A stretch of DNA of 57,064 bases from Candidatus Lloydbacteria bacterium RIFCSPHIGHO2_02_FULL_50_18 (GCA_001821395.1 MHLM01000010.1:1-57064), one strand, 5' to 3'. Counted from the first letter of the stretch, positions 17,601 to 35,030 are shown. Translations and numbers: made by a program. The notes: generated by a model not told the origin, from the sequence alone.

Positions 17601-17727
17601 GTGATGCTTTCAAATTGAGATGAAGAACGAGTTGAAATACAGATTTTGCTAGCAAGCCTTACTCCTGTAAGGTGAGGCGCAAAATCTGTATTTCAACGAA
17701 GTAATTCGCTCAATTTGGAAACATCAC
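17601..17727. repeat. About 127-bp imperfect palindrome with a perfect 18-bp inner stem (ttgaaatacagattttgc / gcaaaatctgtatttcaa) overlapping the stop codon of 17724..18788
   Basis: Outer arms gtgatgctttcaaattgag... / ...ctcaatttggaaacatcac are imperfect. The inner arms at 17631-17648 and 17678-17695 are perfect. No U-tract follows on either strand. Confidence 0.5.
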
Positions 17728-18788
17728 CCGAAATAGAAGAAGAGGATCAATAGTCCCACAATGATCGCAAACAATAACCCGATCGCCACTGCCGCCAAAC
17801 GCGAGATACCTCGCGCACCGCGCACCGCTCCCCCTCCGCGTGTACCCACCACTCCCGCTAACTGTCGACGCACATAGAGGCGGATCAAGACGTAGAGCAC
17901 GAGAATGAATGTGAAGAGTCCTCCAACGACCGGCCCGATGATGTTCATGGGGAGTATCCAGAATGATGTCACCGAGGAAATGGTCTGATTCCCTCCGTCA
18001 ACGAGAGGGATGACGAGCGCGACGACCGCCTCGAAGTGTCCGATCACAAATCCTTCAGGCTGCCACTTTACCTCATACTTTCCCGTACTATTCGGGGAAA
18101 TAACGTATGCGGTCTCATTGACGAGCAGTGATTCGACCTTCTTTCCGAACATATCGGTGATGTCGATCAAGCCTTGCGGTCGAGAAAGCGTATTCCCTTT
18201 ATTCTCCGCTTCAACGGTAAAGATCACGTTTGGAGAGCCGTAAATGAGCTTGTCGGTGAGGAATGCACGCATGCGTGTGTCTTCTTTGACATCACCCGCC
18301 ATTTGAAAATGAAGAATAGCCCCAATGTCAAACCCGACGGCAGAACCCTCCTTGAGATCGGGCGGTTTCTGCGTCAGAAACAATCCCGCAAGGTGTGAGC
18401 CGGGGCGCGCGTCAGCGGGAAATTTAACGGTAAAATGCAGCGTCGCACTACCGCCGGCAGGAACATCGAGCATTGATTCTGAATACGTGATCCACGACGC
18501 GAGCTCGGTCGCATTTGCATCGGCACCCTCCACGTAAACCGGCTGATGATCTAGAGCGATGGTGGCAATGTTCCGGGCAACGGGGTATAGCACAGTCCCC
18601 TGGTCGCCGCGATTTTCGACACGCATCGAATATGAGTGTTCCGAACTCGGCTCAACCTTATCTTCGATCGTCGTCGGGGAAAGATTAAAACTCACCTTAT
18701 TTTGCGCGAAGACCGCAAACGGCGTCATCAGCATGGCGGAACATGCGACAACAACAGCACCTCTTAATATCGTATTAGATCTCAACAT
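17724..18788 (-). CDS. Surface protein with signal peptide, beta-rich ectodomain, C-terminal TM helix and Arg/Gly-rich tail (DUF916/DUF3324-like architecture, assigned from memory)
   Basis: Signal peptide MLRSNTILRGAVVVACSAMLMTPFAVFA and C-terminal FWILPMNIIGPVVGGLFTFILVLYVLIRLYVRRQ. Paralogous to 24432..25817 and 25838..27109, which share the FWI(I/M)PW...TM motif. Confidence 0.5.
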   Translation of the reverse strand: MLRSNTILRGAVVVACSAMLMTPFAVFAQNKVSFNLSPTTIEDKVEPSSEHSYSMRVENRGDQGTVLYPVARNIATIALDHQPVYVEGADANATELASWITYSESMLDVPAGGSATLHFTVKFPADARPGSHLAGLFLTQKPPDLKEGSAVGFDIGAILHFQMAGDVKEDTRMRAFLTDKLIYGSPNVIFTVEAENKGNTLSRPQGLIDITDMFGKKVESLLVNETAYVISPNSTGKYEVKWQPEGFVIGHFEAVVALVIPLVDGGNQTISSVTSFWILPMNIIGPVVGGLFTFILVLYVLIRLYVRRQLAGVVGTRGGGAVRGARGISRLAAVAIGLLFAIIVGLLILFFYFG

Positions 18789-18949
18789 AAAAATTTAGAA
18801 CCTCTCCCTCCCGGCGAGGCGTGTATGCTATGTGTATAAATTTTCCTTTTTCTCCACTCTGACACTAGAAGCTATTGTACCCAATCATTATGGAAGTGGA
18901 AAGGAATAACCCTGCATATGTGTCTTTTGTAGCGATCTTTTGCACAAAT

Positions 18950-18990
18950 ATACAAAAGTACCACCGATCTATCGTGATCGATGGTACTTT
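18950..18990 (-). terminator. Possible terminator after paralog 1
   Basis: Hairpin agtaccaccgatc tatcgt gatcgatggtact (one mismatch) followed on the minus strand by a short CTTTTG run, 45 nt after the stop. Confidence 0.35.
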
Positions 18991-19033
18991 CCACTACGGA
19001 ATCAAAGCAGGCGATACTATCTGACGAACTCGC

Positions 19034-20185
19034 CTAGAAGATCGGAGTACAGACGTAGGTGATAACGTTGTTGTAGTCGACAGCGGCTTCCTGGAGTGCG
19101 GTGACCTGTACGCGATATCCGACACGTGTCTTTCCGATGTTGTCAGTTGTTCCATCCGCAACAGCATTATGATAGAGCACGGTTCGTGTCGACGTCGCGG
19201 TAAGTCCGGCATAGAGCGACGTACCAAAGGCATCTGTTGGAAGCGATGAATCTTCAGATGTCACACCCATATGTCCATAGGTCTCGGTAACTCCAAGAGT
19301 TCCAGCGGGTGTCGTCCATGCAACAGGGGCACCAGTCACCGCTTCATTGTCCTTAAACGCATTAATGTTCGCACCATTTGCTGAGGTAAGATCCTGGTTT
19401 TCAGTGATCGTCACAGAGAAGCCATTGAATGCATTCGTCGCTACGGTGATGTCTTGCGCTGCTATTGAGGATGTACCGACAGAGATGACACCGAACCCAA
19501 TAGCAGTTGCTGATGTTGAGGTCGACGTCGTATCACCATTTATCATAGAACTTGAAGCAACGCCGGCAATCGTAAAGGTCAAATTAGTGTCGACGATGGC
19601 GGTCATAGTGACGGAACTAATGATCGCGATGCGTGTATCTGCGGCATCAGTCATGGTGCCGTTTATACGAACAACATAGGATCCATTCGTACCATTGACG
19701 ACATGCGCATTGGAGATATTCACGAGAATAGCTCCTGCGGCGATAGAATCACCAGTACATGTAGTAAATTCTATATAATCGGGATTGGTGCCTTGATTTG
19801 AGGCATATATCTCATCTGTACCCCCCGCACACGCACCGATATTTGCAACCTGAGTAAGACCACCACCGGTACGTGAAATATGCACATCGGTACCGAGGGC
19901 CACCGCAGAAACATCAAAAGTATTCCCGGTCGGATCAAACGTGATGCGTGTTGTGGATCCGGTAGAACCACCGATGGGATTTACGGTCGTGAATCGCACC
20001 ATATAGTTAGTAGAAACCGATGGCGCTGATGAGGACGCGGTTGCGCTCACAGACAGCAACTGCGACGCAGATGCAGTATTAAAAAGAAACGGGAGGCCGA
20101 GTGCCCATGAAAGGGTTGCGACGACGAGGGTCGTGGCGAGCCACTTCATACGAATTAAAGAACGAAATGCGCTTGTGTAGTCCAT
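19034..20185 (-). CDS. Secreted Ser/Thr-rich beta-rich protein, paralog 1 of a tandem triplet (conserved N-terminus ASQLxSVSATASSSAPS..TNYMVRFTTVN and C-terminus ITYVCTPIF)
   Basis: About 60% identical to 20608..21765 and 21805..22980 over the full length. Signal peptide present and 4 conserved Cys. No recognised domain; the WxL-like idea is unconfirmed because no W-x-L motifs were seen. Confidence 0.6.
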   Translation of the reverse strand: MDYTSAFRSLIRMKWLATTLVVATLSWALGLPFLFNTASASQLLSVSATASSSAPSVSTNYMVRFTTVNPIGGSTGSTTRITFDPTGNTFDVSAVALGTDVHISRTGGGLTQVANIGACAGGTDEIYASNQGTNPDYIEFTTCTGDSIAAGAILVNISNAHVVNGTNGSYVVRINGTMTDAADTRIAIISSVTMTAIVDTNLTFTIAGVASSSMINGDTTSTSTSATAIGFGVISVGTSSIAAQDITVATNAFNGFSVTITENQDLTSANGANINAFKDNEAVTGAPVAWTTPAGTLGVTETYGHMGVTSEDSSLPTDAFGTSLYAGLTATSTRTVLYHNAVADGTTDNIGKTRVGYRVQVTALQEAAVDYNNVITYVCTPIF

Positions 20186-20390
20186 AGTGTGAACTTTTAT
20201 TTTGATAACGAATAACGGCTTGCAAAATTGGAGAATTTGCAGCGGGAGAAAGTGAAGCGTCTATGTTCTCATCGTATGCATATTCTTTGTGGGAAGAATA
20301 TGCGGATCGCCTAGAACACTTCTGTTATTCGCGAATGGGATGTTTTGTGTTGTTCGCTGTTTGGTTAAACATCGAACTCACCTGTCGTTA

Positions 20391-20523
20391 ATTATACAGT
20401 ACCTGTGGAAAAACAGTGCGCTAACGGTGGATAACTGTGGATAACTATTAACGAGAACCATACTTCCACTGTAACAGAGGGGTGTCGGACCACAGCATTA
20501 ATTCAACTTTTGTTATCCACAGG
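20391..20523 (-). promoter_or_regulatory. Promoter of paralog 1: a -10 TATAAT (plus-strand attata at 20391-20396) directly abutting a conserved ~45-bp element with three direct TGTGGAWAA-like repeats, plus an inverted TTATCCACA at 20513-20521
   Basis: The element cctgtggaaaaa.agtg....aac.gtg.ata.ctgtggataact (20402-20446) is near-identical to 23362-23406 and lies at the same distance from a TATAAT in both copies. The -35 is poor, which suggests activator dependence. Confidence 0.5.
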
Positions 20524-20547
20524 AGTGGACAACTTCCCCACAACAAA

Positions 20548-20592: not shown

Positions 20593-20607
20593 TCTAGTAA
20601 ACTAAGA

Positions 20608-21765
20608 CTAGAAGGTAGATGTGCAGACGTATGTGATCTGGTTCGTGTAGTCTGATGCAGCCTCCTGCAATGCCGACACTTGAATACGGAATCCAACCCG
20701 AGTTTTACCAATATTCGCCGTGGTACCATCAGCAGGTCCAGTGTGAAAGAGGATTGTACGCGTCGATGTCGACGAAAGCCCTGCATAAAGCTGTGAGCCA
20801 AAGTCGTCACCGGGAAGCGATACGTCTTCCGAAGTAATACCCATATGCCCGTAAGTATTTGGACTACCGATCGTTCCCACTGGTGCTGTCCAAGCTGTCG
20901 GCGAGCCGGTCACTGCATTCCCATCCTTAAATGCATTGATCGTTGCGCCATTTGCCGAAGTGAGATCCTGATTTTCGGTCACCGTAACACTAAAGCCGTT
21001 CAACGCATTAGTTGAGACCGAAACATCCTGTGCTGCAACAGAAGAGGTTCCAACAGAGAGTGTCCCGAATCCAATTGCGGTCGCAGTACTCGACGTCGAA
21101 GTCGTATCGCCGTTCACGGGGGAACTCGACGCTACTGTGGCGATAGTAAACGTTAGGTTCGTATCGACGATTCCCGTCATGGCAACCTGATTAATGATCG
21201 CAACGCGTGTATCAGCGGAGTCAGCCATCGTACCATTAATCCGTACGACATACGATCCGGATGCAGAAGGATTCACGGCATGTGCACCAGCTATATTTAC
21301 CGTTATAGTACCGGCAGCAATGATATCCCCGGGGCACGTTAAAAGCTCTACATAGTCGGATGCACCTGCAACGACTTGAGACACATACATTTCGCTCACG
21401 GCTCCCGAACACGATCCGAATGCAGCAACCTGCGTAAGACCTCCAGTTAAACGAGAAACTGTTACATTGCCGTTCGTAAGCGCAGTGAGATCAAAGAGTC
21501 CGCCTTGGGGATCAAACGTGATACGCGTTGTCGAAGCCGTAACTGCCTGCCCTATTGCATTCACTGTCGTGAATCGCACCATATAGTTTGTCGCAATGGA
21601 AGGCGCTGACGACGATGCGGTTGCGCTCACAGAATTTAGCTGTGATGCGTAAGTCGGAGTGAATAGCTGGAATGCCGGAAATATCCAACCGACCATTGCG
21701 ATGATGATCGCGGCAGAGATGACTCTCGAGCTCATGAGATGCAATGATCGGTTGTAATAGTTCAC
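20608..21765 (-). CDS. Secreted Ser/Thr-rich protein, paralog 2 of the triplet
   Basis: See paralog 1. Only 39 bp separate it from paralog 3 upstream, so the two are probably co-transcribed. Confidence 0.6.
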   Translation of the reverse strand: MNYYNRSLHLMSSRVISAAIIIAMVGWIFPAFQLFTPTYASQLNSVSATASSSAPSIATNYMVRFTTVNAIGQAVTASTTRITFDPQGGLFDLTALTNGNVTVSRLTGGLTQVAAFGSCSGAVSEMYVSQVVAGASDYVELLTCPGDIIAAGTITVNIAGAHAVNPSASGSYVVRINGTMADSADTRVAIINQVAMTGIVDTNLTFTIATVASSSPVNGDTTSTSSTATAIGFGTLSVGTSSVAAQDVSVSTNALNGFSVTVTENQDLTSANGATINAFKDGNAVTGSPTAWTAPVGTIGSPNTYGHMGITSEDVSLPGDDFGSQLYAGLSSTSTRTILFHTGPADGTTANIGKTRVGFRIQVSALQEAASDYTNQITYVCTSTF

Positions 21766-21804
21766 AGGTAATTCTTATTGGTTGAATAAATAGACACGAG
21801 AAAG

Positions 21805-22980
21805 TTAGAAGATCGGCGTGCAAACGTACGTGATCTGATTGGTATAGTCTGTCGCTGCCTCCTGAAGTGCGCTGATCTGTACGCGGAATCCAACGCGCGT
21901 TGCACCAACATTTGCAGTCGTTCCGTCTGCGGGTCCGGTGTGATAGAGAACGGTACGCGTCGATGTCGCAGTCAGTCCGGCATAGAGCTGGGTACCAAAT
22001 TCATCAGCATCACCGACAAGAGTGGCGTCCTCTGAGGTAATACCCATATGACCATACGTATTTGGACTACCGATCGTCCCTGTTGGATCGGCACCCCAAG
22101 CTGTCGGTGAACCAGTCACCGCATTCCCATCCCTAAATGCGTTGATCGTTGCACCATTCGCCGAGGTAAGGTCTTGATTCTCGGTCACGGTGACGCTAAA
22201 ACCATTCTTCGCATTCGTTGAGACCGAAATGTCCTGTGCCCCGATAGAAGAGGTTCCAACGGAGAGGGTCCCGAATGGAATAGAGGTTGCCGTAGAGAGC
22301 ACATTGGTTGTGTCACCGTTCACCATAGAGCTTGAGGCAACAAGGCCGATCGAGAAGCTGAGGCTACTGTCGACCGAAGCGGTCATCGTGACGGTACTCA
22401 CGATCGCTACGCGGGTATCCCCTGTATCCGTCATCGTGCCGCCGATGCGCACGACATAGGAGCCGGTTACTGCGGGATTCGTGACGTGTGCATTCCTGAA
22501 AGTTACCGTTATAGCACCCGCTGCGATAACGTCCGTATCGCAAGTTTTAAATTCGACATAGTCAGCCGGCTCTGTTTTTCCAATGCGATCTACATAAATT
22601 TGACTAGCGCCACCGTTACACGCCGCAAGATCAGCAACTTGCGTCAACTCGGCCCCCGTAATTACAATATCGGCAGTGCTCGTTGCCAAAGAAGTAAGAT
22701 CGAAGGAATTTCCCGTAGGATCAAAAGTAATACGTGTTGTTGAAGCAAAAGTTGCTGCAGCACTACCAATTGCATTCGCAGTGGTAAATACGACTGCATA
22801 ATTCGTGGAGAGCGATGGTGCGGACGAAGACGCCGTCGCAGAGACCGACGCAAGCTGTGCTGCCGATGAAGTATTAATAAGAAACGGAATACCGACTGCC
22901 CAACCGATAGTGGCGGTGAGAAGTACGATTCCGAGCCCTTTCAATCGGGCAAGATATCGAAACATGTGTGTGTAGCTCAT
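21805..22980 (-). CDS. Secreted Ser/Thr-rich protein, paralog 3 of the triplet
   Basis: See paralog 1. Ends ITYVCTPIF. Confidence 0.6.
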   Translation of the reverse strand: MSYTHMFRYLARLKGLGIVLLTATIGWAVGIPFLINTSSAAQLASVSATASSSAPSLSTNYAVVFTTANAIGSAAATFASTTRITFDPTGNSFDLTSLATSTADIVITGAELTQVADLAACNGGASQIYVDRIGKTEPADYVEFKTCDTDVIAAGAITVTFRNAHVTNPAVTGSYVVRIGGTMTDTGDTRVAIVSTVTMTASVDSSLSFSIGLVASSSMVNGDTTNVLSTATSIPFGTLSVGTSSIGAQDISVSTNAKNGFSVTVTENQDLTSANGATINAFRDGNAVTGSPTAWGADPTGTIGSPNTYGHMGITSEDATLVGDADEFGTQLYAGLTATSTRTVLYHTGPADGTTANVGATRVGFRVQISALQEAATDYTNQITYVCTPIF

Positions 22981-23350
22981 AAAGAACTAGTGGGATAAAA
23001 AACATCAAGTTGACGAAACTATGCGCAACGATCCACGAATTCTTGCTCCAACGTTCAGAAACTTGTTGTGACACGCACCTGCATGTCCTCGTTTTCCTCC
23101 GTCAGCGCACGCAGTCTGTGGATCATTATTCACAAGTTTTGCAACTTGGTGGGATGAATAATGGCAAACTGAACATTCCAACAAAAAATGCGCTATTCGT
23201 TCTTCTTCATCGGCGAGTGCCGAGAATAAGCCGAGACATTAAAAAACTTGTGGATCGTTTTTCAATGCAACAATTGGGATGGTGATTCCTCCTGTACCGT
23301 CGTCCTCGGAGTGTGGATATCCGAGAATACATAGAATGCACCTAGTATTT

Positions 23351-23406
23351 ATTATAACCTGCCTGTGGAAAAAGAGTGGACAAACTGTGAATAGCTGTGG
23401 ATAACT
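23351..23406 (-). promoter_or_regulatory. Promoter of paralog 3: a -10 TATAAT (plus-strand attata at 23351-23356) abutting a second copy of the TGTGGAWAA-repeat element (23362-23406)
   Basis: Same architecture as 20391..20446. Further TGTGGAT copies occur at 23115-23124, 23249-23258 and 23312-23321 between this promoter and the start codon. Confidence 0.5.
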
Positions 23407-24054: not shown

Positions 24055-24056
24055 AC

Positions 24057-24332: not shown

Positions 24333-24359
24333 GGGCAAAGTGTACCCTCCCTCTGTTTG

Positions 24360-24431: not shown

Positions 24432-25817
24432 TTACCCCTTGGGGCGGATCTCGGTCACCTGATAGGTGCGCTCCTCCTGGAAGACTTCGGCGAAATACCA
24501 ACCGACAAGTGCACATCCGAAAATAAATACAAAAACGAAGAGAATGAACATGCGATAGCGTTTTGCCCACTCTATATATGAAGTATGCTGGCGGTGTTTG
24601 CCGTGGACCGCTTTTGCATGCGAGACATGAGCGGCTCGGACTCCCCCTTTTGACAACTCCGCCGCACCGAGGATGAGCGGGCGCTTGAGCAACTCGAGTG
24701 TGAGGCGAGGGCTTGTCGCTTCGTGGTGACGGGGTTTTGCATGTGGCGCGTGCGCAACTTCGTGAGGTACAACCTTTGGCTCCTCTGCAGCTGTTCCAAA
24801 TAGATGCTCGCGCTCAAGCTGCAGTGCACGGCGAATGTACCGCCTGATGGACCACGTGAAGAACCAGATCAAAAAGACGATAGTGAAAAGCGTTGCTCCG
24901 ACCTTGCCCCACGGAATGATCCAGAAATATGTCGTGCGTACTGCACTCTGTTTATTCTCCTCCCCGTACGAAAGCACAGCCTCCGCTTTGTAGCGACCGA
25001 TATCAAAAAGGGATTCTTCCCCTTTCCATTCAAAAGCGAATTTTCTCGTCGAGCCGGGCAGCACATTCCCAAATGAACTTGCTTCATTGACTTTGATCGT
25101 CCCGCGCGTCTTTCCCCACATATTGGTGATGACGATCTCCCCCTGCGGAACGAGATGAACATTGCCTTTATTCTCGAAACGCAGCGCGAATGACTGCTCC
25201 GGTGTCGGGACGATGTCTTTCGCAGTATAAAAATCACGGATGAGCCCTTCTTCGACAACCTCTCCGGGGACACGCAGGAAGATGAGCGAAGTGAGCATTG
25301 AGCCCACGCTTGCACCGGAACCCTGCGAGATATCCGGCGGAAGTGTTCCCACCATGATCGCTCCGTAGTGTCCGCCCGGGTCCGCGTTCACGGGCACCAT
25401 GATCGAGAATGGTATCTCATATGAACGATCGGGGAGGACGGTGATATCACCCGACGGGAGTGTGATCCATCCCGACATGAGGCGCGTATCCACGGCGCTT
25501 CCGTGCGACAAATTATCGAACACCGCATTTCCCGTTTCTCCATTCGGATGAAAATCGGCTACGGTAGTATGAACGATGAGCGGATAGGGATTCGTATTTA
25601 CCACGCGCAACGTGCTTTTCCATAGCGTGCCCGGAGCGATCGTGAGCTGATAGAGCGGCGGTGCAATCGTGATCGACATCTTGCTCGTATCGACCTGTGC
25701 GAACGAAGCAGAAGGAATACAAAAAGAAAGCAGGAGCAGCAAGGCAGTGGCGAGCGCGAACTGATGACGCGAGAGTGCGGCAATGTGAGCGAAAATGTGT
25801 TGAGTTATTTTTTGCAT
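24432..25817 (-). CDS. Surface protein, DUF916/DUF3324-like paralog (signal peptide, beta-rich ectodomain, C-terminal TM FWIIPWGKVGATLFTIVFLIWFF, long basic/His-rich cytoplasmic tail)
   Basis: Same architecture as 17724..18788 and 25838..27109. Confidence 0.5.
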   Translation of the reverse strand: MQKITQHIFAHIAALSRHQFALATALLLLLSFCIPSASFAQVDTSKMSITIAPPLYQLTIAPGTLWKSTLRVVNTNPYPLIVHTTVADFHPNGETGNAVFDNLSHGSAVDTRLMSGWITLPSGDITVLPDRSYEIPFSIMVPVNADPGGHYGAIMVGTLPPDISQGSGASVGSMLTSLIFLRVPGEVVEEGLIRDFYTAKDIVPTPEQSFALRFENKGNVHLVPQGEIVITNMWGKTRGTIKVNEASSFGNVLPGSTRKFAFEWKGEESLFDIGRYKAEAVLSYGEENKQSAVRTTYFWIIPWGKVGATLFTIVFLIWFFTWSIRRYIRRALQLEREHLFGTAAEEPKVVPHEVAHAPHAKPRHHEATSPRLTLELLKRPLILGAAELSKGGVRAAHVSHAKAVHGKHRQHTSYIEWAKRYRMFILFVFVFIFGCALVGWYFAEVFQEERTYQVTEIRPKG

Positions 25818-25837: not shown

Positions 25838-27109
25838 CTACTTCCTTCGCCCGAGCGTGACGATATGATCGGGGTCGATGTGTTTCTCTTTCTTGATCAA
25901 ATGGACCTTGTGCCCATCGGTGTGCGCGCGGAGAGCTTGCACTCCGCCCTTGCCATCTGAAACTGTTCCGATCTCCTCGCGAAGCACGTGCGCATGATCG
26001 ACATGCATTCTCGACGGTGCGGAAGTCACGCTGTATCTCGTGCGGGCTCGGGGCGGTATCGCGACTTCAGTGATCCCGTTCACATGCGTCTGCTGTACTG
26101 CGTCATCATCGTAAGGAGAATAATCGCTTGATGGAACATTCTCCTCCGATCCGTCCGCAAACGAAAATACGAATCGTCTCCGCGGTCCACGCTGTGCTAA
26201 TCCCCACGAATGGACGACGAGCGCCAAGATGATACCCATCATGCCGATCGTGGCAAACATGCCGAGCAGTTTTGTCCATGGCATGATCCAAAAATACACT
26301 GTGTCTTGAACGACGCCACGTACTCCATAATCAAGTTCGAGCATCGCCTTATAACGTCCGAAGTGTCCGTCGGCAGCCCACACTGATGCGAGGAGTTCCT
26401 TCTGATTCGGTTCAAGTCGACGTGCATCCTTGTTCGCATCGATCGCGGCGACCTCCTCTCCGCGCCGATCAAAGATGTGGATCTTCCCCATGGGGGTGAC
26501 TCCACGATTACCGATGTTCTCAATACGATAATTGAACGACGCATCATTGCCGCTGAAAAAATTCTTATCGGGAACGAACGTATTCAATTCGAGGCGCTCA
26601 TGGACATCATCGAGCACTTCTATATTGACTGCGACGTCGCGCGTACCCTCCGCGTTCGCCTCAGCAGCAGCGCGATTAGTGCCGTCACTCAAATGAATGA
26701 ACGCGTGATAGATTCCCGGCGTAGCATTCATGTCTATCTGCAAGAGGATCGGAATATCTTTCTTTTCTCCGGGAAGGAGATCGATCACCGCACGCGTCAC
26801 TTCGATCCAGCGTGCGGGAGAAGCGGCCCGCGCTTCACCCGGCGAGCCTCCTCCAAGATCAGTTCCGCCCGTCGTGCCGGAGAGGGCATCGAGATCGGCA
26901 ACCCACGGGTAGAGCTGCAGCATATGCTTCGTGTCATTTTCAACCGAGAGTGTATAGCGGAGGATCTCACGCGTCTTCCCTTTTCCGTCGATGACCGCCG
27001 GCGTGACCGAAAAATCCGCAGCATAGGCGAGCGGGGCGATAAAAAGTGAGCACGCAAAAGAAAACAGCAATGCATGCCAAAATGCCTTCGGACTCCTCTT
27101 TTCCGTCAT
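25838..27109 (-). CDS. Surface protein, DUF916/DUF3324-like paralog
   Basis: The ORF-track start at 27358 gives an 83-aa Arg-rich leader. The ATG at 27109 (MTEKRSPKAFWHALLFSFACSLFIAPLAYA) is a clean signal peptide. C-terminal FWIMPWTKLLGMFATIGMMGIILALV TM. Confidence 0.5.
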   Translation of the reverse strand: MTEKRSPKAFWHALLFSFACSLFIAPLAYAADFSVTPAVIDGKGKTREILRYTLSVENDTKHMLQLYPWVADLDALSGTTGGTDLGGGSPGEARAASPARWIEVTRAVIDLLPGEKKDIPILLQIDMNATPGIYHAFIHLSDGTNRAAAEANAEGTRDVAVNIEVLDDVHERLELNTFVPDKNFFSGNDASFNYRIENIGNRGVTPMGKIHIFDRRGEEVAAIDANKDARRLEPNQKELLASVWAADGHFGRYKAMLELDYGVRGVVQDTVYFWIMPWTKLLGMFATIGMMGIILALVVHSWGLAQRGPRRRFVFSFADGSEENVPSSDYSPYDDDAVQQTHVNGITEVAIPPRARTRYSVTSAPSRMHVDHAHVLREEIGTVSDGKGGVQALRAHTDGHKVHLIKKEKHIDPDHIVTLGRRK

Positions 27110-27237
27110 ACTTCTTATTATAGAGTACGTTTGCGCAGATAAGCTGGGGACAACTCTAGAGTTCAACAAATAAACCCCAACTTCTTTGTTGCGGTGCCCA
27201 TGCGACTCGGTCAACGTATATGAATACGTCTTCTCCC

Positions 27238-27289
27238 CTACGGGGACTTCCAAATTCATACTCCCCATGGTCGTTGAATTTCTGGTCGC
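27238..27289. repeat. Intergenic repeat module E (homologous to 17309..17367)
   Basis: ctacggggacttccaaattcatactcc.catggtcg.tgaatttc.ggtcg is ~80% identical to the segment inserted in the 17-kb repeat locus. Confidence 0.4.
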
Positions 27290-27367
27290 TCGTCGCTTTT
27301 CCCGCGCCTCGCATCTGGGGTTATTTGATGAACTCCTACGTTTGATAGATGTTTGCATACGGAATAT

Positions 27368-30300
27368 TTAGAACGTCGGAACGACGAGGTATATCAGTCT
27401 TACCGAATAACTTCCCGCGGGCTGGGCGTTCCTCACATCAAGCCGATAGACCATATTCGCGACATCAGCGGTAACCGGTCCAGAATTGTACATGACCTCT
27501 TCGAGTGTTGTAGAGGCGAACGGAGCGTATGTATCATTCATCAGAAAACGCGTCGAGCCCGCTCCCAGCGTGTCATCCCCCGCATGATATCCGAAACATC
27601 CGGAGAGCGTCCCGGGACAGGCTGTCGCCCAATCGAGCGGAACCGCGTTCGTACTTTCCACGTCGGGAATATCTCCAACGGATGCAGTGAACCGGCCATC
27701 TGTGCCCAAAAATACCTGATACCCATTTTCCGCATTCGTCGTGACCGAAAGTTGCTGTGCGGCGGTCTTCCCCGTCCCCGGAGTAATGGTCATGAATGAG
27801 GTTTGTGTCGGCGTCGTTCCCACATCGGTCGTCACCCCCTCCGTCACCGTCGATGTCGCGAGCCCGGAAATACTGAACGAGAGCGTCGTGCCCTCTACGG
27901 AGAGCGACGGATAGCTCGCGAGCGCTGCGAGCGGGACCGGGCGATTGTGATTCACATCGTACGCGCGGAAGAAGTACGTAGTATTGAAATATGCACGACG
28001 CCCGATGATCGTGAATTCGTATTCCGTTGCGGTCGACGCCGGCGCATAAAATGTCGTCGTGTTCGTCGCCGACTCATTATGTGTACCATTCGCAGCGGAG
28101 TCGGAGAGTACGCGCGCGGTGATCGGATCATTATTGGTATCAACTCCGTTCCCATAGCACCACTGTGACATCGCCACACATGTCGAGGTCGACTCAACGT
28201 AATTCACATTCGTGGAAAAATCAGAGTAGGTTGAGAATTGCAGACGGAATTTCTGATTCGGGCCCATCGATGCATTGGTCTCGTTGATCGTGAGACGGAG
28301 TTTGATCGTGTTGCCGTTCGCGACATTTGACGGTGCGACGATCTCGCCCGCACCCGAAAGCGATACGGATGGATTCGCACTGGTCTCATCATCATACCAA
28401 TGCCATTTTTTCTCCTCGGGCATAAAACCGCGCGTCGTGATGACGGGGTAAAAATCGTAACTGAAAAGCGCACTACCGTCCGATTTTGTCATTCGGAAAC
28501 AGTACGGCGTATTCGTCGCGGCATTATTACTCTGAATATTCCAGTCATATTCAACATCATTTCCCACGATCACCGCAAATGGATTCACTGCCGTCGGATT
28601 GGATTCCTGATATGTTCCTGCGGAATCAGACACTGAGAGGAGCACGGTGCCCCCTGGTGGAGGATCTCCTCCTGCAAGCTGTGCCCCATCGGTAATAGTT
28701 GGTGCGTTGTATCCTCTCCAAAGTACACCCGAGGCAGGAGCGCCAAGATCGGTCCACGAAGCGACCGCTCCGCACGAGGTCACTTTTTGCGCGAACTGCA
28801 AATTGAATTGCGTCGATGACGCGGTCATCGTCGTGGTCGCGACCTTGAGTGACATGCGCAGGCGTATGCGGTCCCCATTTGCGGGAGGATTGTCCGCCGC
28901 GGTGATCTCCGCATTCTCACCAAGATTTCCCAGACCCGATGGCCACGCGACGGTCGGGGTGAGCGCACCATTGTCCTGATAGAGTCGGAAATAATTTTGC
29001 GTAAATGTCGGGACCAAAAGCTCTTGATTCGCGTCGTAGGTCACGACCACGATATTCGCGAATGATGCCAAGTTTGCCTGACTCTTCGACTCATTGATCT
29101 CGATAACGCGCTCATTCCATAAAATAGTATTACCGTTCGAGAACGTCGATGATGCGATCGGGGCGAAATAGGTTGAAACATACGCTTCATTCAATGTCGC
29201 GTTGGTATCGACAGACTCTTGCACCACAGTAGAAGAGCCATTCACGCCGATGGTAAGATTTCCGATAGCAATATTCGTTGCCTGTGAGTGCATGAACTTC
29301 GTCTCAAGATATGCGCTCCGGTATGTCTTTGTCACTGTCTCGGGAAGATCGATATATGCAGGTCGATTATTGTAATCATTCGCTATCGCATCGAGTCCTT
29401 GCTGAGCGGCCGAAAATGTCACCGTCTGCGTTTGCGGACCGCCAAATTTTCCGCTCCACGTGAACGTGAAATATACCTCGACCGCCATCGGGGCCGCGCC
29501 AGCCGTATACTGCTCGGCCCCTGCAATCGCAGTTGCGGCGGTAAAGAAATTTTCCGCCTTGTCGGACAGATCGAATATCAAATTGAAATCATCACCCGAA
29601 CGCGGATTCACACCACCGATAGTAATGGCGCGTGAAACTTCCGACGATGTCCCCACCTTGCCATAGATAGTGATATTCGCAGTCGAGGTTGCTGCCACAT
29701 GCGCCTTGAACCACACATTCTGCATTGAAAGCCCCGTGTTCGATATGGTCATCGTTGTCGTAGGAAATTCACTGCGTGCGTTCCCCGGAGTGGAGGTCGC
29801 GTCCTGATTCATAAAGTAGCGCACTGTTTCTGTTTGTGCTGCCGCACCAGTCGAGTAATTGTACGTCACCACGAGTTCACCACCCAAGGCGTTCATCGGG
29901 ATAGTCCCCATGAGGACATTAAATTTCATGGTTGCATTGCGCTGAAAATTAGGACTTCCCACCGTGGGACGCCAGATGGCTGTCTTTGTGTTGTCGTCGG
30001 TAAGTGCTTCTGTCCAATTGTATGCAGTTGATGTCGCATTCCCCCCACTCCCACCCTGAATACCGATCTGAAAAGTCGATGCAGCCGCAACAGTGTCAGT
30101 CTCTCCGTGTATCTCTACATACACATCAACAATGTCCGCATCAGCAACGGCATCGGGTGTCGTCGATGTTGCTAGGAAAGAACAAGTTGTCGCCGCCGCA
30201 CATGCGGTGCTTCGTGTTCCGCGATCACCTGCGACCATTGAGGATAGCGGGAATCGTACTGTCTTCGTTTCCGTGTGTGGAACGAGCGAAAAGTTTTCTT

Positions 30301-32701
30301 CATACGTCACAACGAGCCTCACCGTCGTTAAGGAATGTGATGGACCGGTCACCGAGATTGAGGTCACAATGGGTATTCCCGCATTAAAACTCGCATCTCC
30401 CTGCCGATCAAAAAATGCAGTGACATCATACTGGTGACGCTGATACCCCGAGAGCCCGCTTTGTGCCCACAGTGATGCACCAAGCAACTCGGAAATGCGT
30501 GCGTTCGTTCCTCCGGAAGAAGAACCTCCAACGTCAATAAAGACATTTTCATTCGTCACGTTTGCGGCGGTATTGATGACATATGACACATCGAGGTATG
30601 CATTCTTCACTGCGATGCCAGAACCCTGAATCTTCATCAATCGAGTTCCCGCTGTTGCCTTCACGGTATTCCATGTTGCCCCACCATAAACTACTGTTGC
30701 CGTCGTACGCGATGTCGTGTCCGTACCGCCACCCAATACAAATTCAACGGTGCGCAGATGTTTCACTGGCGGAGTATCTTGTGTTAAAGAAAAATCCGCA
30801 TCGTAGGTCACCACGACCATATTCGCGAACGAGGTAAGATTTGCCACATTTTTTCCTTCGCTGATCTCAATGGTGCGCTCGGTCCAAAGGATCGTATTTC
30901 CGTCAGAAAATGTCGATGATGCGATCGGAGCGAAATAGGTCGAGGCATATGCCTCACTTGTTGTATCCGCAGATTCAGTTACTACAGTCGATGAACCGTT
31001 CACACCGATAGTCACCGTACCGACAGTTATACTTGTGCCCTGTGAATGCATATACTTCGTCTCAAGATAGGCACTGCGGTACGTCTTCGTCACCGTCTCA
31101 GGGAGATATAAATAGGCGGGGCGATTATTAAAATCTCCGGTAATCGCATTAACACCTTGCTGGGCTCCGGAAAATGATACGGTTTGCGTCTGTGGTCCGC
31201 CCGCACTTCCTGCCCACGTAAAAGTAAAATACGCCTCGACGCCGGGTGGCGCACCACCGGCAGAGAACTGTGTCGCACCGGTGACATCCGTTGCAGCCGT
31301 AAAGAAATTTCCCGCCACGTCGGACATGTCAAAGATCAAATTATGGTCGTCTCCTGAACGCGGATTCGCAGCCGTAATGGCTATTCCACGAGTGACCTCA
31401 GTTGATGTGCCCACCTTGCCGAACGTCGTAAACGTATTTGCAGCAACAGGTGCGGTGTGTATCTTAAACCAAATGTTTTGCATTGAGAGTCCCCCATTCG
31501 ATACAACCATCGACGTTGTAGCAAAATTATTGCGCGTCGTACCAGGAGCCGCAGTTTCTTGGTCCATAAAGTAACGCACTGTTTCCGTTTGTACTGCAGC
31601 ACCCGTTGAATAGTTGTAGGTGATGACGAGCTCACCACCAAGCGCATTCATTGGAATAGTTCCCGTGAGCACATTAAACTTCATTGTTATATTACTCTGA
31701 AAGTTGGTAGCCCCAACGGTGGGACGCCAAATAGCGGTCTTCGTATTATCGTCAATGAGTGTTTCTGTCCACGCATATGCCGTAGAGGATGCGTTGCCGC
31801 CAGTACCGCCCTGGATACCTATCTGAAATGTCGAAGCAGATGCTACGGCATTGTCCGTTTCCCCGTGTATCTCAACATATACATCAATGATATTTCCATC
31901 GCTCCCATCGGGTATCGTCGATGTCGCAAGAAAAGAACATGTTGAAGCGGCGGCACATGCAGTACTGCGTGTACCGCGGTCACCTGCAACCATTGAAGAA
32001 AGCGGAAATCGCACCGTCTTCGTTTCCGTATGTGGCGTGAGTGAATAATTTTCTTCGTACGTAATGACAAGCTTCACAGTAGTAAGTGCGCGAGTAGGTC
32101 CGGTGATCTGAGTGCCTATAACGACTGGGATCCCTGCATTAAAACTTGCATCACCCTGTCGATCAAAAAATGCAGTGACGTCGTACTGATGCCGCTGATA
32201 GCCGGAAAGGCCACTGTTCGCCCAAAGGCTCGCACCGATATATTCAGAGACGCGTGCGTCGGTTCCACCCGACGAAGAACCGCCGACATCGATATAGACA
32301 TTTTCATTCGTAAGATTGACCGCAGTATTTAAAATATAAGAGACATCAACATATGCATTCTTCACCTCAATACCCGACCCCTGGAGGGCGATCAACCGAG
32401 TTCCTGCCGTTGCCTTAACGGTGTTCCAAGTAGTACCCCCATAGGTTAAAAGGTTGCTTGCGCGCGATGTCGTATCTGTCCCGCCTCCCAAGACAAATTC
32501 GACGGTTCGTAGATGCTTCCCCGTATACGCGGCCTCTGCCCCCCGCGGTGCGAACGGCGTCATGAACCCCAAATAAAAATCGAGTCCGCCAAAACTATAG
32601 AAAATGGTAAGAAGGGTCAAAAAAAATATTCCCGATGTGCGAAAAATGCGACGCGCAGAACGCCGACAGATGCGTTTCACGTTTGCGAAGGGGTTTATCA
32701 T
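27368..32701 (-). CDS. Giant (1777 aa) secreted/anchored protein with two ~586-aa tandem repeat units followed by a unique ~545-aa C-terminal region
   Basis: ATG at 32701 overlaps the upstream stop (ATGA). Hydrophobic N-terminus. Repeat units begin KHLRTVEFVLGGGTDTTSR... and are ~85% identical. Confidence 0.7.
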   Translation of the reverse strand: MINPFANVKRICRRSARRIFRTSGIFFLTLLTIFYSFGGLDFYLGFMTPFAPRGAEAAYTGKHLRTVEFVLGGGTDTTSRASNLLTYGGTTWNTVKATAGTRLIALQGSGIEVKNAYVDVSYILNTAVNLTNENVYIDVGGSSSGGTDARVSEYIGASLWANSGLSGYQRHQYDVTAFFDRQGDASFNAGIPVVIGTQITGPTRALTTVKLVITYEENYSLTPHTETKTVRFPLSSMVAGDRGTRSTACAAASTCSFLATSTIPDGSDGNIIDVYVEIHGETDNAVASASTFQIGIQGGTGGNASSTAYAWTETLIDDNTKTAIWRPTVGATNFQSNITMKFNVLTGTIPMNALGGELVITYNYSTGAAVQTETVRYFMDQETAAPGTTRNNFATTSMVVSNGGLSMQNIWFKIHTAPVAANTFTTFGKVGTSTEVTRGIAITAANPRSGDDHNLIFDMSDVAGNFFTAATDVTGATQFSAGGAPPGVEAYFTFTWAGSAGGPQTQTVSFSGAQQGVNAITGDFNNRPAYLYLPETVTKTYRSAYLETKYMHSQGTSITVGTVTIGVNGSSTVVTESADTTSEAYASTYFAPIASSTFSDGNTILWTERTIEISEGKNVANLTSFANMVVVTYDADFSLTQDTPPVKHLRTVEFVLGGGTDTTSRTTATVVYGGATWNTVKATAGTRLMKIQGSGIAVKNAYLDVSYVINTAANVTNENVFIDVGGSSSGGTNARISELLGASLWAQSGLSGYQRHQYDVTAFFDRQGDASFNAGIPIVTSISVTGPSHSLTTVRLVVTYEENFSLVPHTETKTVRFPLSSMVAGDRGTRSTACAAATTCSFLATSTTPDAVADADIVDVYVEIHGETDTVAAASTFQIGIQGGSGGNATSTAYNWTEALTDDNTKTAIWRPTVGSPNFQRNATMKFNVLMGTIPMNALGGELVVTYNYSTGAAAQTETVRYFMNQDATSTPGNARSEFPTTTMTISNTGLSMQNVWFKAHVAATSTANITIYGKVGTSSEVSRAITIGGVNPRSGDDFNLIFDLSDKAENFFTAATAIAGAEQYTAGAAPMAVEVYFTFTWSGKFGGPQTQTVTFSAAQQGLDAIANDYNNRPAYIDLPETVTKTYRSAYLETKFMHSQATNIAIGNLTIGVNGSSTVVQESVDTNATLNEAYVSTYFAPIASSTFSNGNTILWNERVIEINESKSQANLASFANIVVVTYDANQELLVPTFTQNYFRLYQDNGALTPTVAWPSGLGNLGENAEITAADNPPANGDRIRLRMSLKVATTTMTASSTQFNLQFAQKVTSCGAVASWTDLGAPASGVLWRGYNAPTITDGAQLAGGDPPPGGTVLLSVSDSAGTYQESNPTAVNPFAVIVGNDVEYDWNIQSNNAATNTPYCFRMTKSDGSALFSYDFYPVITTRGFMPEEKKWHWYDDETSANPSVSLSGAGEIVAPSNVANGNTIKLRLTINETNASMGPNQKFRLQFSTYSDFSTNVNYVESTSTCVAMSQWCYGNGVDTNNDPITARVLSDSAANGTHNESATNTTTFYAPASTATEYEFTIIGRRAYFNTTYFFRAYDVNHNRPVPLAALASYPSLSVEGTTLSFSISGLATSTVTEGVTTDVGTTPTQTSFMTITPGTGKTAAQQLSVTTNAENGYQVFLGTDGRFTASVGDIPDVESTNAVPLDWATACPGTLSGCFGYHAGDDTLGAGSTRFLMNDTYAPFASTTLEEVMYNSGPVTADVANMVYRLDVRNAQPAGSYSVRLIYLVVPTF
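29002..32518. repeat. Intragenic tandem duplication, 2 x ~1758 bp, inside 27368..32701
   Basis: ORF-track artefacts 30093..30437 and 31851..32048 encode near-identical peptides exactly 1758 bp apart. Confidence 0.7.
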
Positions 32702-34365
32702 ATCGTCGTGTCGGTACTTGTTCCGTTATTGTCATCACCGGCACCCGTGCCACGCATTGCCGTACTTGTGCCTGTCGTCGAGGCAGTTCCCGGGAGCGCC
32801 AGTGGCTCGGGTGCGGGATGCGGTGTCTGAGGCACGTAGGGCTTGTTGTCATCGATGACATTGCGTGCGGCCTCTGTCATGTCGACCTTCCCGCCGGTTG
32901 CAATGTCGTACCCCACCATACGCGTCTCTCCGTTCGCTCCGCGCTCATCCCATGTAACCGCAAAGCGCGGATTCTCACTCTTTGCTCCGTCATCCGAAAG
33001 CTTCGTCGTCTTCCCCGAGGTCACCGAGTATGCGTAGACACTCCAAACCCCTCCCTCGAACGATTGCCAGGTGACGAGTCCTCCCGAGATCGCGGGAAAC
33101 ATATCGTGCACAGAATTCTGCGTGATACGCACGACGTGCCACGTGCCGTCAATACCGAGCATCGTATTTAATTTCGGCATCTTATCCGCAGCATAATAGG
33201 AAGTTGACGATAATTTATCCGCGAGAAAAATTTCCCAATTTCCGTCCGCCCACCCCTGCCAAACGACACTCTCGCCGTCTACGCGAGGATTGAAATTACT
33301 CTCGGTGCCATGTGTGAGTTGCAAGATCGTCGGCGAGCTCGAAGACACACCTGCCTGCGCAGACAGGTCTGCAAAATAGATTTGCCAACGACCTGCCTCC
33401 TGTGTCTGCCACACAACATGTGTACCTCCAACATCCTTCGCGGGGAATGCGTCCTCGACCTCATTGTCGGTCAGTCGTATTGTCTCGGTGCCGCGCTCCG
33501 CAATGATCTCTTTGTCGGTACCACCAACGACAACATCCGTATGCACGGCAGTGATGGCCTGCGATGGTGTTCCGGAAGCGACCGCGCGCGCGTCGTCTTT
33601 CAAACAATAATACCCTACCCCATCAAGTGTGAGGCAGCCCTTCAGCACATCAGCTTCAATCTCTTTTTTCAATTCCTGGCGCATCGTGATCGAGCGACTC
33701 TCCAGCTCGCGTGCAATGATTTCTTCTTTTGTGAGTTCTGGTGCGACAACTTCTTCCGGCTGTACTTCTTCGGTTGGTGCGACCTCCTCAATAGTAGCGA
33801 CTTCCTCAGTAGTAGGAGTCGCGATCTCTTCGGTTATTGTAGGTGAAACTTCTACGCTCGCAGGTGTTTCGATCACTTCCGGCGTACTACTTGCCACAGT
33901 GGAATCACCAAATACCTCACCGGCGGCGGGCACATCTTCGGGTATCACTTCGCTCGTCGTTGCAGTGCTCGGAGTCTCAGTCTCAGCCGGTACCACTTCG
34001 GCAGGGATCTCCGTCACTGGCGGCAATTCCGTGGGAATCTCAGTCGTCACAGTATCTACCGGTGCATCAGTCGTAGACACCGGAAGTGATTCTTCAGGTG
34101 TCACCGCTTCTTCTGGTGTGACCTCGGGAGCCGGAGTCGTCTCAACGGGAAGTGATACCTCTGCTACGGGGGCAACTTCAACGGGAACTAATACTTCTGC
34201 TACGGGGGCAATCTCAACAGGAGCGGGTGCGACACTCTCATCGGCGGCATACAGAGGAAGCAGCGGGCGAAAGATCAGCACAGGGACGATCAGGATCACG
34301 GCGAATTTCGAGAAAAAACCCGCAACGTCGTTAACAGTAAAGGAAGATCGAGTAGACGTATGCAT
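32698..34365 (-). CDS. Membrane-anchored protein with a Pro/Glu/Val-rich low-complexity stalk and a beta-propeller-like repeat domain (PD40/TolB-like W-x-I-Y/F repeats)
   Basis: The ATG at 34365 is preceded by a strong SD AAGAGGAGGG. The ORF-track start at 34539 adds an Arg-rich 58-aa extension. Repeats VVWQTQEAGRWQIYFADL, VVWQGWADGNWEIFLADK and VTWQSFEGGVWSVYAYSV are present. Confidence 0.6.
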   Translation of the reverse strand: MHTSTRSSFTVNDVAGFFSKFAVILIVPVLIFRPLLPLYAADESVAPAPVEIAPVAEVLVPVEVAPVAEVSLPVETTPAPEVTPEEAVTPEESLPVSTTDAPVDTVTTEIPTELPPVTEIPAEVVPAETETPSTATTSEVIPEDVPAAGEVFGDSTVASSTPEVIETPASVEVSPTITEEIATPTTEEVATIEEVAPTEEVQPEEVVAPELTKEEIIARELESRSITMRQELKKEIEADVLKGCLTLDGVGYYCLKDDARAVASGTPSQAITAVHTDVVVGGTDKEIIAERGTETIRLTDNEVEDAFPAKDVGGTHVVWQTQEAGRWQIYFADLSAQAGVSSSSPTILQLTHGTESNFNPRVDGESVVWQGWADGNWEIFLADKLSSTSYYAADKMPKLNTMLGIDGTWHVVRITQNSVHDMFPAISGGLVTWQSFEGGVWSVYAYSVTSGKTTKLSDDGAKSENPRFAVTWDERGANGETRMVGYDIATGGKVDMTEAARNVIDDNKPYVPQTPHPAPEPLALPGTASTTGTSTAMRGTGAGDDNNGTSTDTTI

Positions 34366-34535
34366 TTGCCTACCCTCCTCTTGAAGTGCACGAGGGGAAG
34401 GGGTAATACATCTTACTGTAGTACCGCGTGAAGGAGTGCCCCCACGAGGAGAAAGTGCTGTCGCAACGAATACCGGATGCGACGCACCCGCACGCTGCCC
34501 TAATCGCACGACATGATCATTGTTGCTCTTGCTGG

Positions 34536-35030
34536 TCATATGCGCAGTGCTGAGAACAATAATTCACGCTCAGGCAGTTGAGCGGTCACTGGGATCGCTT
34601 GCCCGTTCGTCAAGCTGATCGTCGGCGTATTTTCGATAAGGCGTGCTTTTGCGCGCTCCTGCATACGGTGGTCGAGAGCGACCGAAAGAAAATAAAATAG
34701 TACCAGGAGGGCAATCGAAAGTATCACCAAGATGACGTAGAGCATGTAAGAAAGCACGCGGCTTCCGTCGCGATCGAGCAGCGTCTGCATCAGGCGCTCC
34801 TGTGTCCACGCCGCTTTCTCCTTTTCTCCTTTTCCTGTGCGTTTCTCTTTAGCGAGATATTCTTCCATCGCCTCCGGAGTCGTCATCCATGCGACGTTTG
34901 CGTAGACCTGCTTCCCCTCAAGCTTTCCCTTCCGAATGAGTTGCCCAATATAATCGGGAGAGTAGCCAAAACGCTCACTCGCCTCTTTGAGTGTGATGAA
35001 TCCGGCTTTCTTTTGCTCTTGCGAGGTCAT
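34536..35030 (-). CDS. Membrane-anchored helix-turn-helix protein (excisionase/MerR-like HTH at the N-terminus, single TM), first gene of the surface-protein operon
   Basis: ITLKEASERFGYSPDYIGQLIRKGKLEGKQV looks like an HTH; TM segment VLSYMLYVILVILSIALLVLFYFLSVAL. Confidence 0.5.
   Translation of the reverse strand: MTSQEQKKAGFITLKEASERFGYSPDYIGQLIRKGKLEGKQVYANVAWMTTPEAMEEYLAKEKRTGKGEKEKAAWTQERLMQTLLDRDGSRVLSYMLYVILVILSIALLVLFYFLSVALDHRMQERAKARLIENTPTISLTNGQAIPVTAQLPERELLFSALRI

Follow-up and report, generated by a model that had tools for sequence, protein, structure and literature searches.

Does the large cluster of surface-protein genes on the minus strand of a Candidatus Lloydbacteria contig belong with the WxL/Csc cell-surface complexes of Firmicutes, or is it a system of another kind? 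The stretch analyzed here (57,064 nucleotides of Candidatus Lloydbacteria bacterium RIFCSPHIGHO2_02_FULL_50_18, GCA_001821395.1, MHLM01000010.1:1-57064; hereafter "the window") had been described in an earlier note, based on the sequence alone, as carrying a supercluster resembling such complexes. The host is Candidatus Lloydbacteria of the Paceibacteria/Parcubacteria within the Candidate Phyla Radiation (CPR), a group of ultra-small groundwater bacteria, and not a Firmicute; proteins encoded in the window bear the NCBI name Candidatus Lloydbacteria bacterium RIFCSPHIGHO2_01_FULL. Nonetheless, where it can be tested, the Csc/WxL analogy holds: the cluster encodes homologs of WxLIP, the anchor protein of WxL clusters, together with small and large client proteins that have a common C-terminal domain. 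We therefore propose, with a probability only slightly better than even (about 0.55), that the cluster is the Lloydbacteria copy of a Paceibacteria surface cassette, a distant and rebuilt relative of the Firmicute WxL/Csc clusters, in which, by analogy with the latter, the anchors would hold their clients by strand complementation. All nine minus-strand open reading frames (ORFs) claimed previously are present where they had been placed. The window is 100% identical to the Joint Genome Institute contig 3300002502|C687J35174_10000351 over 21 kb, and the near-identical contig used for comparison of gene calls shares 99.995% identity with the window.

The anchors are homologous to WxLIP

Three anchor genes carry the argument:

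17724..18788, minus strand: A1, WxLIP-like anchor downstream of the small genes, two transmembrane helices (PF06030 below threshold, hhalign)
24432..25817, minus strand: A2, WxLIP-like anchor just upstream of the small gene, two transmembrane helices (homology and position)
25838..27358, probable start 27109, minus strand: A3, WxLIP-like anchor adjoining the large gene, one transmembrane helix (homology and position)

The three proteins, which had been likened to DUF916/DUF3324 anchors, are indeed mutual paralogs (BLASTP E-values of 2e-32, 3e-15 and 5e-17), and all of them have the FWI(L/I/M)P motif just before a transmembrane helix. Residues F276, W277 and P280 of this motif vary little or not at all among 48 homologs. 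A second transmembrane helix follows at the C-terminus of A1 and A2; A3 has one helix in all. The A3 ORF encodes 506 aa, but the gene call on the near-identical contig uses an internal Met giving 423 aa (25838-27109), and this Met at 27109 is probably the true start.

The relationship to Firmicute anchors emerges from profile comparisons. The anchor family aligned by hhalign with seven Firmicute WxLIPs at a probability of 98.9% (E 1.6e-17) over 257 columns spanning both immunoglobulin (Ig)-like domains. These WxLIPs were taken from annotated plasmids, and their strong matches to PF06030 and PF11797 served as positive controls. When PDB sequences were searched, the anchor profile retrieved EfmWxLIP1 (9i25_C, 9i1y_A) at 1.4e-7, followed by a weak colinear second stretch. 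Within the family, 43 of the 48 members match PF06030 at E<=0.1, the best of them at 1.6e-8. For the window proteins themselves the HMMER result is marginal. A1 alone matches PF06030, below the gathering score (18.2 bits against a cut-off of 27.3; E 0.0026; profile positions 22-119 of 121), while A2 and A3 have no Pfam match to it, and PF11797 (HBD/DUF3324) has none in either the window anchors or the 48-member family. The profile-profile alignment is nevertheless colinear through most of HBD, reaching position 268 in A2 and position 280 of 352 in WxLIP. Judged by these alignments, the window anchors are genuine full-length WxLIP homologs (DUF916, a probable DUF3324 and a transmembrane helix). 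A WxL gene cluster has been defined as adjacent genes encoding one or more WxLIPs and two or more WxL proteins (PMC10599100); as to the former, three full copies are present here.

Small and large proteins share a C-terminal domain

The candidate clients are encoded by four genes:

27368..32701, minus strand: L, large protein of 1777 aa, two repeats of 585 aa, C-terminal domain also found in S (hhalign with the small-protein family)
21805..22980, minus strand: S (P3), small secreted protein with an Ig-like N-domain and the shared C-terminal domain
20608..21765, minus strand: S (P2), second small paralog; the call on identical contigs starts at 21735 (375 aa)
19034..20185, minus strand: S (P1), third small paralog

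Three tandem secreted paralogs rich in Ser and Thr had been recognized before, and so they are: they share 64-66% mutual identity, contain 26% Ser+Thr, are acidic and carry signal peptides. The mature S protein is ~350 aa long, and its AlphaFold2 (AF2) model consists of two beta domains with a predicted local distance difference test (pLDDT) score of 89. We found 233 homologs of the small proteins, all of them unannotated and none with a Pfam domain. The previously described repeat giant, L, contains two tandem 585-aa repeats (residues 63-647 and 648-1232) with ~75% identity in the 539 aa that were compared. Neither the small proteins nor the giant gave anything meaningful in Pfam and NCBIfam scans. 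Foldseek matches of full-length S (SdrE, FnBPA and integrins, with template-modeling scores of ~0.2) were set aside as generic tandem Ig architecture.

What had been overlooked is that L ends in a domain shared with S (residues ~1590-1777, terminating in YLVVPTF). In hhalign, L matches the small-protein family with a probability of 98.6% and an E-value of 1.3e-15. A combination of small and large clients sharing one C-terminal domain is the defining layout of WxL clusters (PMC10599100). The shared domain (C-domain) is a beta-sandwich of ~195 aa, modeled with nine strands (pLDDT 94.6, predicted template-modeling score (pTM) 0.89). A profile search of 1.84 billion proteins yielded 1207 representative clusters at 50% identity; 150 matches were listed, and sequence ends were counted over 145 of them. 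With the exception of one partial match, all 150 listed matches reach within a few residues of the C-terminus. Of the 145 representatives, 144 terminate in F or Y and 143 have Pro at position -3. The proteins span 129-1784 aa, although several of the shortest look like fragments, and there are forms made up of a signal peptide and the C-domain only (10 of the 145 proteins are <=260 aa long). The P-x-F/Y end of the family recalls terminal-residue recognition signals, yet CPR bacteria are thought to lack an outer membrane.

Structurally, the C-domain has the Ig-like pilin fold. Its neighbors are almost all subunits of fibers assembled by donor-strand exchange (DSE), including many Fim, Pap and CFA pilins. 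Among them is TLP-1b, an environmental fibril of unknown source (PMC11494351), with 14% identity; TLP-1b and the C-domain belong to the same fold class but not to the same family.

A conserved cassette across Paceibacteria

To see how general this arrangement is, we scanned one genome per GTDB species (285 relatives, 79 loci kept) and mapped the ORFs with hidden Markov models (HMMs). The gene neighborhood is conserved: in the 79 species loci there is one colinear cassette, with all genes on one strand, in the order (H)(B)-L-A3-A2-S(1-3)-A1-m-(f)-N-o-C. Nearly all of these loci carry Patescibacteria-group labels, two being labeled Gammaproteobacteria or Pseudobdellovibrionaceae. Where there is enough flank, the order A-A-S-A is found in 27 of 42 loci and L-A-A-S-A in 25 of 42. 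Moreover, the position of an anchor predicts its type. Downstream of S, the anchor is most similar to A1 of the window (46 of 47 loci); immediately upstream of S it is most similar to A2 (52 of 52), and at the farther upstream position to A3 (38 of 38). On this pattern of best matches, A1, A2 and A3 are therefore ancient, specialized paralogs. Among full-length examples, the size of L varies between 435 and 2304 aa. Tandem families of small genes, by contrast, turned out not to be the hallmark that the earlier note took them for, since a single S is present in 67 of 75 loci; the triplication in the window is thus lineage-specific. A second layout, A-S-C-C-C-B, occurs in more distant genomes; it has a single anchor and a single small protein together with three cohesin-type proteins and the propeller, but neither L nor a second or third anchor (loci L041, L053, L056, L057, L059, L062, L063, L068, L072 and L077).

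In the window, the cassette spans from 35030 down to 8179 on the minus strand, well past the previously reported boundary at 17724, because it is split by two insertions:

24057-24338, minus strand: RelB/DinJ antitoxin, inserted between A2 and the first small gene
23776-24054, minus strand: YafQ toxin (PF15738 at 5e-25)
10703-13500, minus strand: TldD/PmbA metallopeptidase pair, inserted between N and the Hsp20-C genes

The genes of the reported 17-kb extent (17724-35030) are real, but the extent itself is interrupted by the RelB/YafQ pair (23776-24338) and ~0.8 kb of non-coding leader, and the cassette continues beyond it. The RelB/YafQ insertion has a promoter-like site at 24367-24339 and a terminator-like hairpin at 23660-23638, and A2 and S are immediate neighbors in most other genomes. 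The TldD/PmbA pair is found near the cassette in this lineage only and is absent there in the other 79 loci. Secretion or membrane signals are a general feature of cassette members; Hsp20 (o) has no evident signal peptide.

Regulatory signals

The non-coding parts of the cassette contain three recognizable elements:

23351..23405, minus strand: promoter region preceding the first small gene, with arrayed GTTATCCACA-type boxes and TATAAT at 23351-23356 (alignment with the orthologous region of locus L004 and the region upstream of P1)
20391..20444, minus strand: second GTTATCCACA box array with TATAAT at 20391-20396, upstream of the third small gene (alignment)
18954..18991, minus strand: 16-bp GC-rich hairpin followed by Ts, directly after the last small gene; terminator or attenuator

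The sequence GTTATCCACA, which forms arrays upstream of the S-gene promoters, equals the DnaA-box consensus. Over 80 loci its density is 3.5 per kb in the regions upstream of S and 0.32 per kb overall, an enrichment of ~11-fold. The promoters of H (6 of 8 loci) and B are likewise marked by it, in contrast to those of L, N, m, f and C. Among the listed examples, many boxes lie ~30-55 nt upstream of a TATAAT-like hexamer. Candidate regulators acting at these boxes are DnaA and the cassette's own helix-turn-helix (HTH) membrane protein, H. A replication origin (oriC) at the arrays was considered and rejected as unlikely on three grounds: the cumulative GC skew falls almost steadily across the window, rising slightly only near 20-22 kb and never reversing for good; the window-wide count of boxes is not enriched (15 against 10.8 expected); and in other genomes the boxes turn up again at particular places, namely ahead of the S, H and B genes.

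Two leaders, of ~360 nt (22981-23350) and ~200 nt (20186-20390) and both on the minus strand, separate the S genes from their predicted -10 boxes. The non-coding stretches containing them share ~83% nucleotide identity with a Lloydbacteria relative whose S protein is 69% identical, and blastn against this relative gave no match beyond the leader stretches and the adjoining parts of S genes. A strong GC-rich hairpin, often accompanied by a U tract, is present in the gap between S and A1 in most of 45 loci, although its sequence differs among them. The median of the best 60-nt minimum free energy in these 45 loci is -26 kcal/mol compared with -19 in coding controls. The hairpin looks like a conserved terminator or attenuator separating S from A1.

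Head genes and a putative second docking module

The remaining cassette members lie at the head of the operon and downstream of A1:

34536..35030, minus strand: H, HTH (MerR/excisionase-type) protein with one transmembrane helix, operon head (HTH_17, helix at 99-117)
32698..34539, likely start 34365, minus strand: B, beta-propeller protein anchored in the membrane, with a Pro/Glu/Val/Thr-rich stretch (TIGR04275)
16515..16949, minus strand: m, 144-aa membrane protein, neighbor of A1 (homologs in 45 loci)
15567..16508, minus strand: f, FGE-sulfatase-like protein with a hydrophobic N-terminal segment, optional member (PF03781 at 2.2e-12)
13771..15531, minus strand: N, secreted 586-aa protein with an S-type N-domain, Ig domains and a type I dockerin (hhalign, Dockerin_1)
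9709..10224, minus strand: o, Hsp20 small heat-shock protein (PF00011 at 6.7e-12)
8179..9708, minus strand: C, signal peptide, cohesin, proline-rich linker, transmembrane-like stretch near residue 430 and charged tail (PF00963)

Both head genes answer to their earlier descriptions. H, said to be an HTH-membrane protein, has a weak HTH_17 match (6e-4) and one transmembrane helix at residues 99-117, and its homologs are similarly placed upstream of the large-protein gene in 5 other loci. B, said to be a beta-propeller stalk protein, contains TIGR04275 propeller repeats at 2e-20, with 72 bits being below the curated cut-off of 85; the propeller is preceded by an N-terminal transmembrane helix at 72-90 and a long segment of Pro/Glu/Val/Thr-rich composition, as read from the sequence. 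B adjoins L in other loci, and the reported ATGA overlap of these two genes is present at 32698-32701. The 170-bp gap reported before B depends on the choice of start: it exists if B starts at the ATG at 34365 and disappears with the longest ORF, which starts at 34539 and overlaps the H stop. We favor 34365 because of the Shine-Dalgarno sequence GAGGAGGG 6 nt upstream of it.

Downstream of the anchors, homologs of m are present in 45 loci, in 39 of them directly after A1, and f is found in 22 loci, following m in about half of those 39. The hydrophobic N-terminal segment of f was read from its sequence. FGE-type enzymes modify Cys or Ser in secreted proteins, so that one of the cassette proteins might be a substrate of f. 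The S-type N-domain recurs in N (97.8%, E 1.1e-12 when aligned by hhalign with the small-protein family), which also carries Dockerin_1 (PF00404; 26.9 bits against a cut-off of 22.9), while C carries a cohesin (PF00963; 31.4 bits against 24.1). Each domain scores above its gathering threshold in five of five orthologs, and the two genes are neighbors in the cassette. C is found in 36 loci, its signal peptide, linker, transmembrane-like stretch and tail being read from the sequence. The order N-o-C, with the Hsp20 gene between the dockerin and cohesin genes, recurs in 15 other loci. The domain matches thus suggest that N and C form a second, cellulosome-style docking module in a CPR bacterium.

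How might the clients be held?

Based on the above, a scheme for the cassette may be outlined. Each anchor would complete or clamp the C-terminal domain of a client by beta-strand complementation, as predicted for WxLIP and WxL, and the invariant free C-terminus would probably take part, as in chaperone-pilin complexes. In such complexes, the C-terminal strand of the pilin is anchored by the chaperones of chaperone-usher (CU) systems. S and L would thereby be held non-covalently on the cell surface. S, whose gene has a promoter of its own with GTTATCCACA boxes, followed by a long and conserved leader, and ends at a terminator hairpin, would be the abundant unit, and L the variable, outward-facing adhesin. 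The second docking pair would place the dockerin protein N on the apparently membrane-anchored cohesin protein C, displaying the S-type N-domain. The likely role of the whole would be attachment to hosts or surfaces. The scheme draws by analogy on reported AF2 models of a WxL sandwich completed by a strand from WxLIP (PMC10599100) and on the solved WxLIP-WxL complex (PDB 9i25). Several points weigh against it. The transfer of the binding mode relies on anchor homology and gene context alone. The Firmicute motif NQIDKxxxYFDLK, conserved in the N-terminal part of WxLIPs (PMC10599100), falls in an 11-column gap in the hhalign alignment of the CPR anchors, and A1 and A2 have two transmembrane helices instead of one. 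Finally, the minimal cassette has three anchors for two types of clients with the C-domain, and this stoichiometry is unexplained.

The same data could be read more conservatively if the C-domain were a true WxL domain with F or Y in place of W and V, A or C in place of L. The cassette would then be an ordinary, though highly diverged, WxL cluster; the C-domain would bind peptidoglycan as in Firmicutes, and nothing would be mechanistically new beyond the host phylum. Indeed, in hhalign comparisons the first WxL motif stretch is repeatedly aligned (NGFsVTV..GAxI with gWxLtV..GAxL; P 0.0055-0.028). When the threshold is relaxed, the alignment runs on from ipFG/ldFG to DYTnxLTYVaTP/YtttLtWxLxxxP, so that three motifs follow each other in the same order, and the score of 25.2 exceeds those of reversed controls, unrelated-family controls and 60 block shuffles (maximum 24.8). 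The C-domain is also similar to the small WxL domain in size, is always C-terminal, begins with a strand followed by a long irregular segment, as in WxL (PMC9772566), and occurs in small and large forms beside WxLIP homologs. However, the hhalign probability is only 2-7%, none of 53 family members matches PF13731 at E<=1, and the WxL HMM found nothing significant in 5555 CPR ORFs. The family profile finds nothing among PDB sequences, including the solved WxL chain 9i25_A, whereas the WxL profile retrieves this chain at 3.4e-11; it was the only query to do so, as phmmer searches of PDB with single E. mundtii WxL proteins returned nothing. Read against PMC9772566, the sequence conserves neither the Asp and Arg at W1-8 and W1-6 nor the GTxAG turn; the spacing of the motifs to the C-terminal Pro is different, and the chain ends in P-x-F/Y. 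The secreted paralogs lack W-x-L motifs, as had been pointed out before, and read F-S-V and Y-V-C/A at the corresponding positions. In other words, of the two WxL-domain proteins (PF13731, dual Trp-x-Leu) expected in a WxL cluster, we detected none in the cassette. Homology of the C-domain to the WxL domain is therefore possible but unproven, and we regard it as doubtful; the same holds for the cassette being an ordinary WxL cluster. At the level of sequence, the clients can operationally be treated as a new partner family, as the earlier note anticipated, because they match neither PF13731 nor any PDB sequence.

It is also tempting to see in the cassette a donor-strand-exchange fiber or pilus, a single-membrane counterpart of chaperone-usher or TasA/TapA systems, with S as the head-to-tail major subunit, L as the tip adhesin and the anchors as membrane-tethered chaperones or base. 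The fold neighbors of the C-domain, including the environmental fibril (PMC11494351), would fit, and so would the S gene, which has the signature of a major subunit (own promoter, long leader, terminator hairpin and variable copy number). WxLIP itself has been described as a pair of perpendicular Ig domains donating a strand (PMC10599100), and its likeness to PapD-type chaperones is our own reading. The invariant aromatic C-terminus, too, recalls the C-terminal strand of pilins known from CU pili. Yet S has a complete, confidently folded N-domain before the C-domain rather than a short N-terminal donor extension, the C-domain on its own models as a nine-strand domain with a pTM of 0.89, and the cluster contains no usher, SipW-type peptidase or sortase/LPXTG; we therefore consider such a fiber unlikely. 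Even more improbable, in our view, is an S-layer or envelope coat in which S would form a two-dimensional lattice, with the anchors, propeller and cohesin proteins as attachment points and without any strand complementation. S is acidic, Ser/Thr-rich and widespread, a layout of promoter, long leader and terminator is also typical of S-layer genes, and a Haloferax S-layer protein is among the Foldseek matches (E 1.1e-3). Nonetheless, S is small for this purpose (~350 aa when mature), family scans revealed no SLH or other known S-layer anchoring domain, and both the presence of the C-domain in L and the three positionally fixed WxLIP homologs would be left unexplained. Returning to anchors that hold their clients by strand complementation, one might go further and imagine a class-wide Paceibacteria organelle built on donor-strand complementation, comprising WxLIP-type chaperone-like anchors, a pilin-like domain family ending in P-x-F/Y-COOH, S as the bulk (possibly a fiber) and a giant adhesin, and serving episymbionts as a host-attachment device. 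This is a rather long shot. If true, WxLIP would be an ancient, general strand-donating anchor of single-membrane bacteria and not a specialty of Firmicutes.

Comparison with known systems

WxL/Csc clusters are known from Lactobacillales and Listeria and consist of CscA/WxLIP, small WxL and large WxL proteins, with or without an LPXTG protein (PMC1534035, PMC9772566, PMC10599100). The cassette resembles them in that the anchor is homologous over both Ig-like domains, which are followed by a transmembrane helix preceded by an aromatic pair (FW in the cassette, NWW or NFW in Firmicutes). In addition, small and large multi-domain clients have a common C-terminal domain of ~180-200 aa, and the genes form a single colinear cluster, near which an HTH protein is often encoded. 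At the same time, there are clear differences. The host of the cassette belongs to CPR. No WxL signature can be detected in the client domain, which has P-x-F/Y at its end. The cassette has three anchor paralogs at fixed positions, whereas WxL/Csc clusters usually have one, and the anchors are devoid of NQIDKxxxYFDLK, two of the three having a second transmembrane helix. The small client has an extra Ig-like N-domain. The LPXTG protein (CscD), which is frequent but not obligatory in WxL clusters, is missing, as a regex scan of all window ORFs revealed no credible LPXTG sorting signal in the cluster. Extra conserved members of the cassette are the propeller, 144-aa membrane, FGE-like, dockerin, Hsp20 and cohesin proteins.

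Compared with DSE fibers (archaic chaperone-usher Csu pili, TasA/TapA, archaeal bundling pili and TLP-1 fibrils), the cassette shows no sequence similarity and has neither an usher nor a dedicated signal peptidase. The full extra N-domain of S is unlike the short donor extension of these subunits, and for the cassette polymerization is a prediction. Cellulosome-type assemblies share with the cassette an apparently membrane-anchored cohesin protein and a secreted type I dockerin protein. They differ in that the cassette is without glycoside hydrolases or carbohydrate-binding modules, its dockerin protein shares the N-domain of the small protein, and the pairing is predicted only. Thus, the best fit is a kind of system that is already known, WxL/Csc, in which WxLIP-type anchors with a new client domain, in a new phylum and with added modules, are what is new here.

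To our knowledge, the means by which CPR/Patescibacteria attach to hosts or surfaces are largely unknown beyond type IV pili. The cassette, present in many Paceibacteria species in a fixed order and with its own regulatory signals for the small and head genes, offers a candidate for a major surface structure that is concrete enough to be tested. Of the known WxL sequences, about 91% come from Firmicutes (PMC9772566), and the literature we searched, itself incomplete, contained no papers linking DUF916 or WxL with CPR taxa. The present analysis extends the WxLIP anchor family to a distant phylum, where it is paired with a different client domain. The cassette also provides a comparative handle on how WxLIP holds its clients, the structure of the complex (PDB 9i25) being only recent. 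Paceibacteria that parasitize archaea are reported to have highly expressed secreted Ig-like proteins (PMC10936435), a possible link to the cassette.

Neighboring genes

Across the whole window, the leaders included, no sequence attains the gathering score of any Rfam family. Immediately upstream of the cassette there is a gene for a 764-aa amino-acid permease fused to a universal stress protein domain (36473-38767, minus strand). Further envelope genes nearby encode an 847-aa protein with an ASH/Ig-like domain (40257-42800), a PG_binding_1 and cytochrome b5 fusion (48282-49475) and a VanY D,D-carboxypeptidase (46598-47524), all on the minus strand. Still farther, the region 50507-54110, also on the minus strand, resembles a copper or heavy-metal module with a CopA-type P-type ATPase carrying an HMA domain (50507-52687) and an HMA-DsbD_2 membrane protein (53100-54110).

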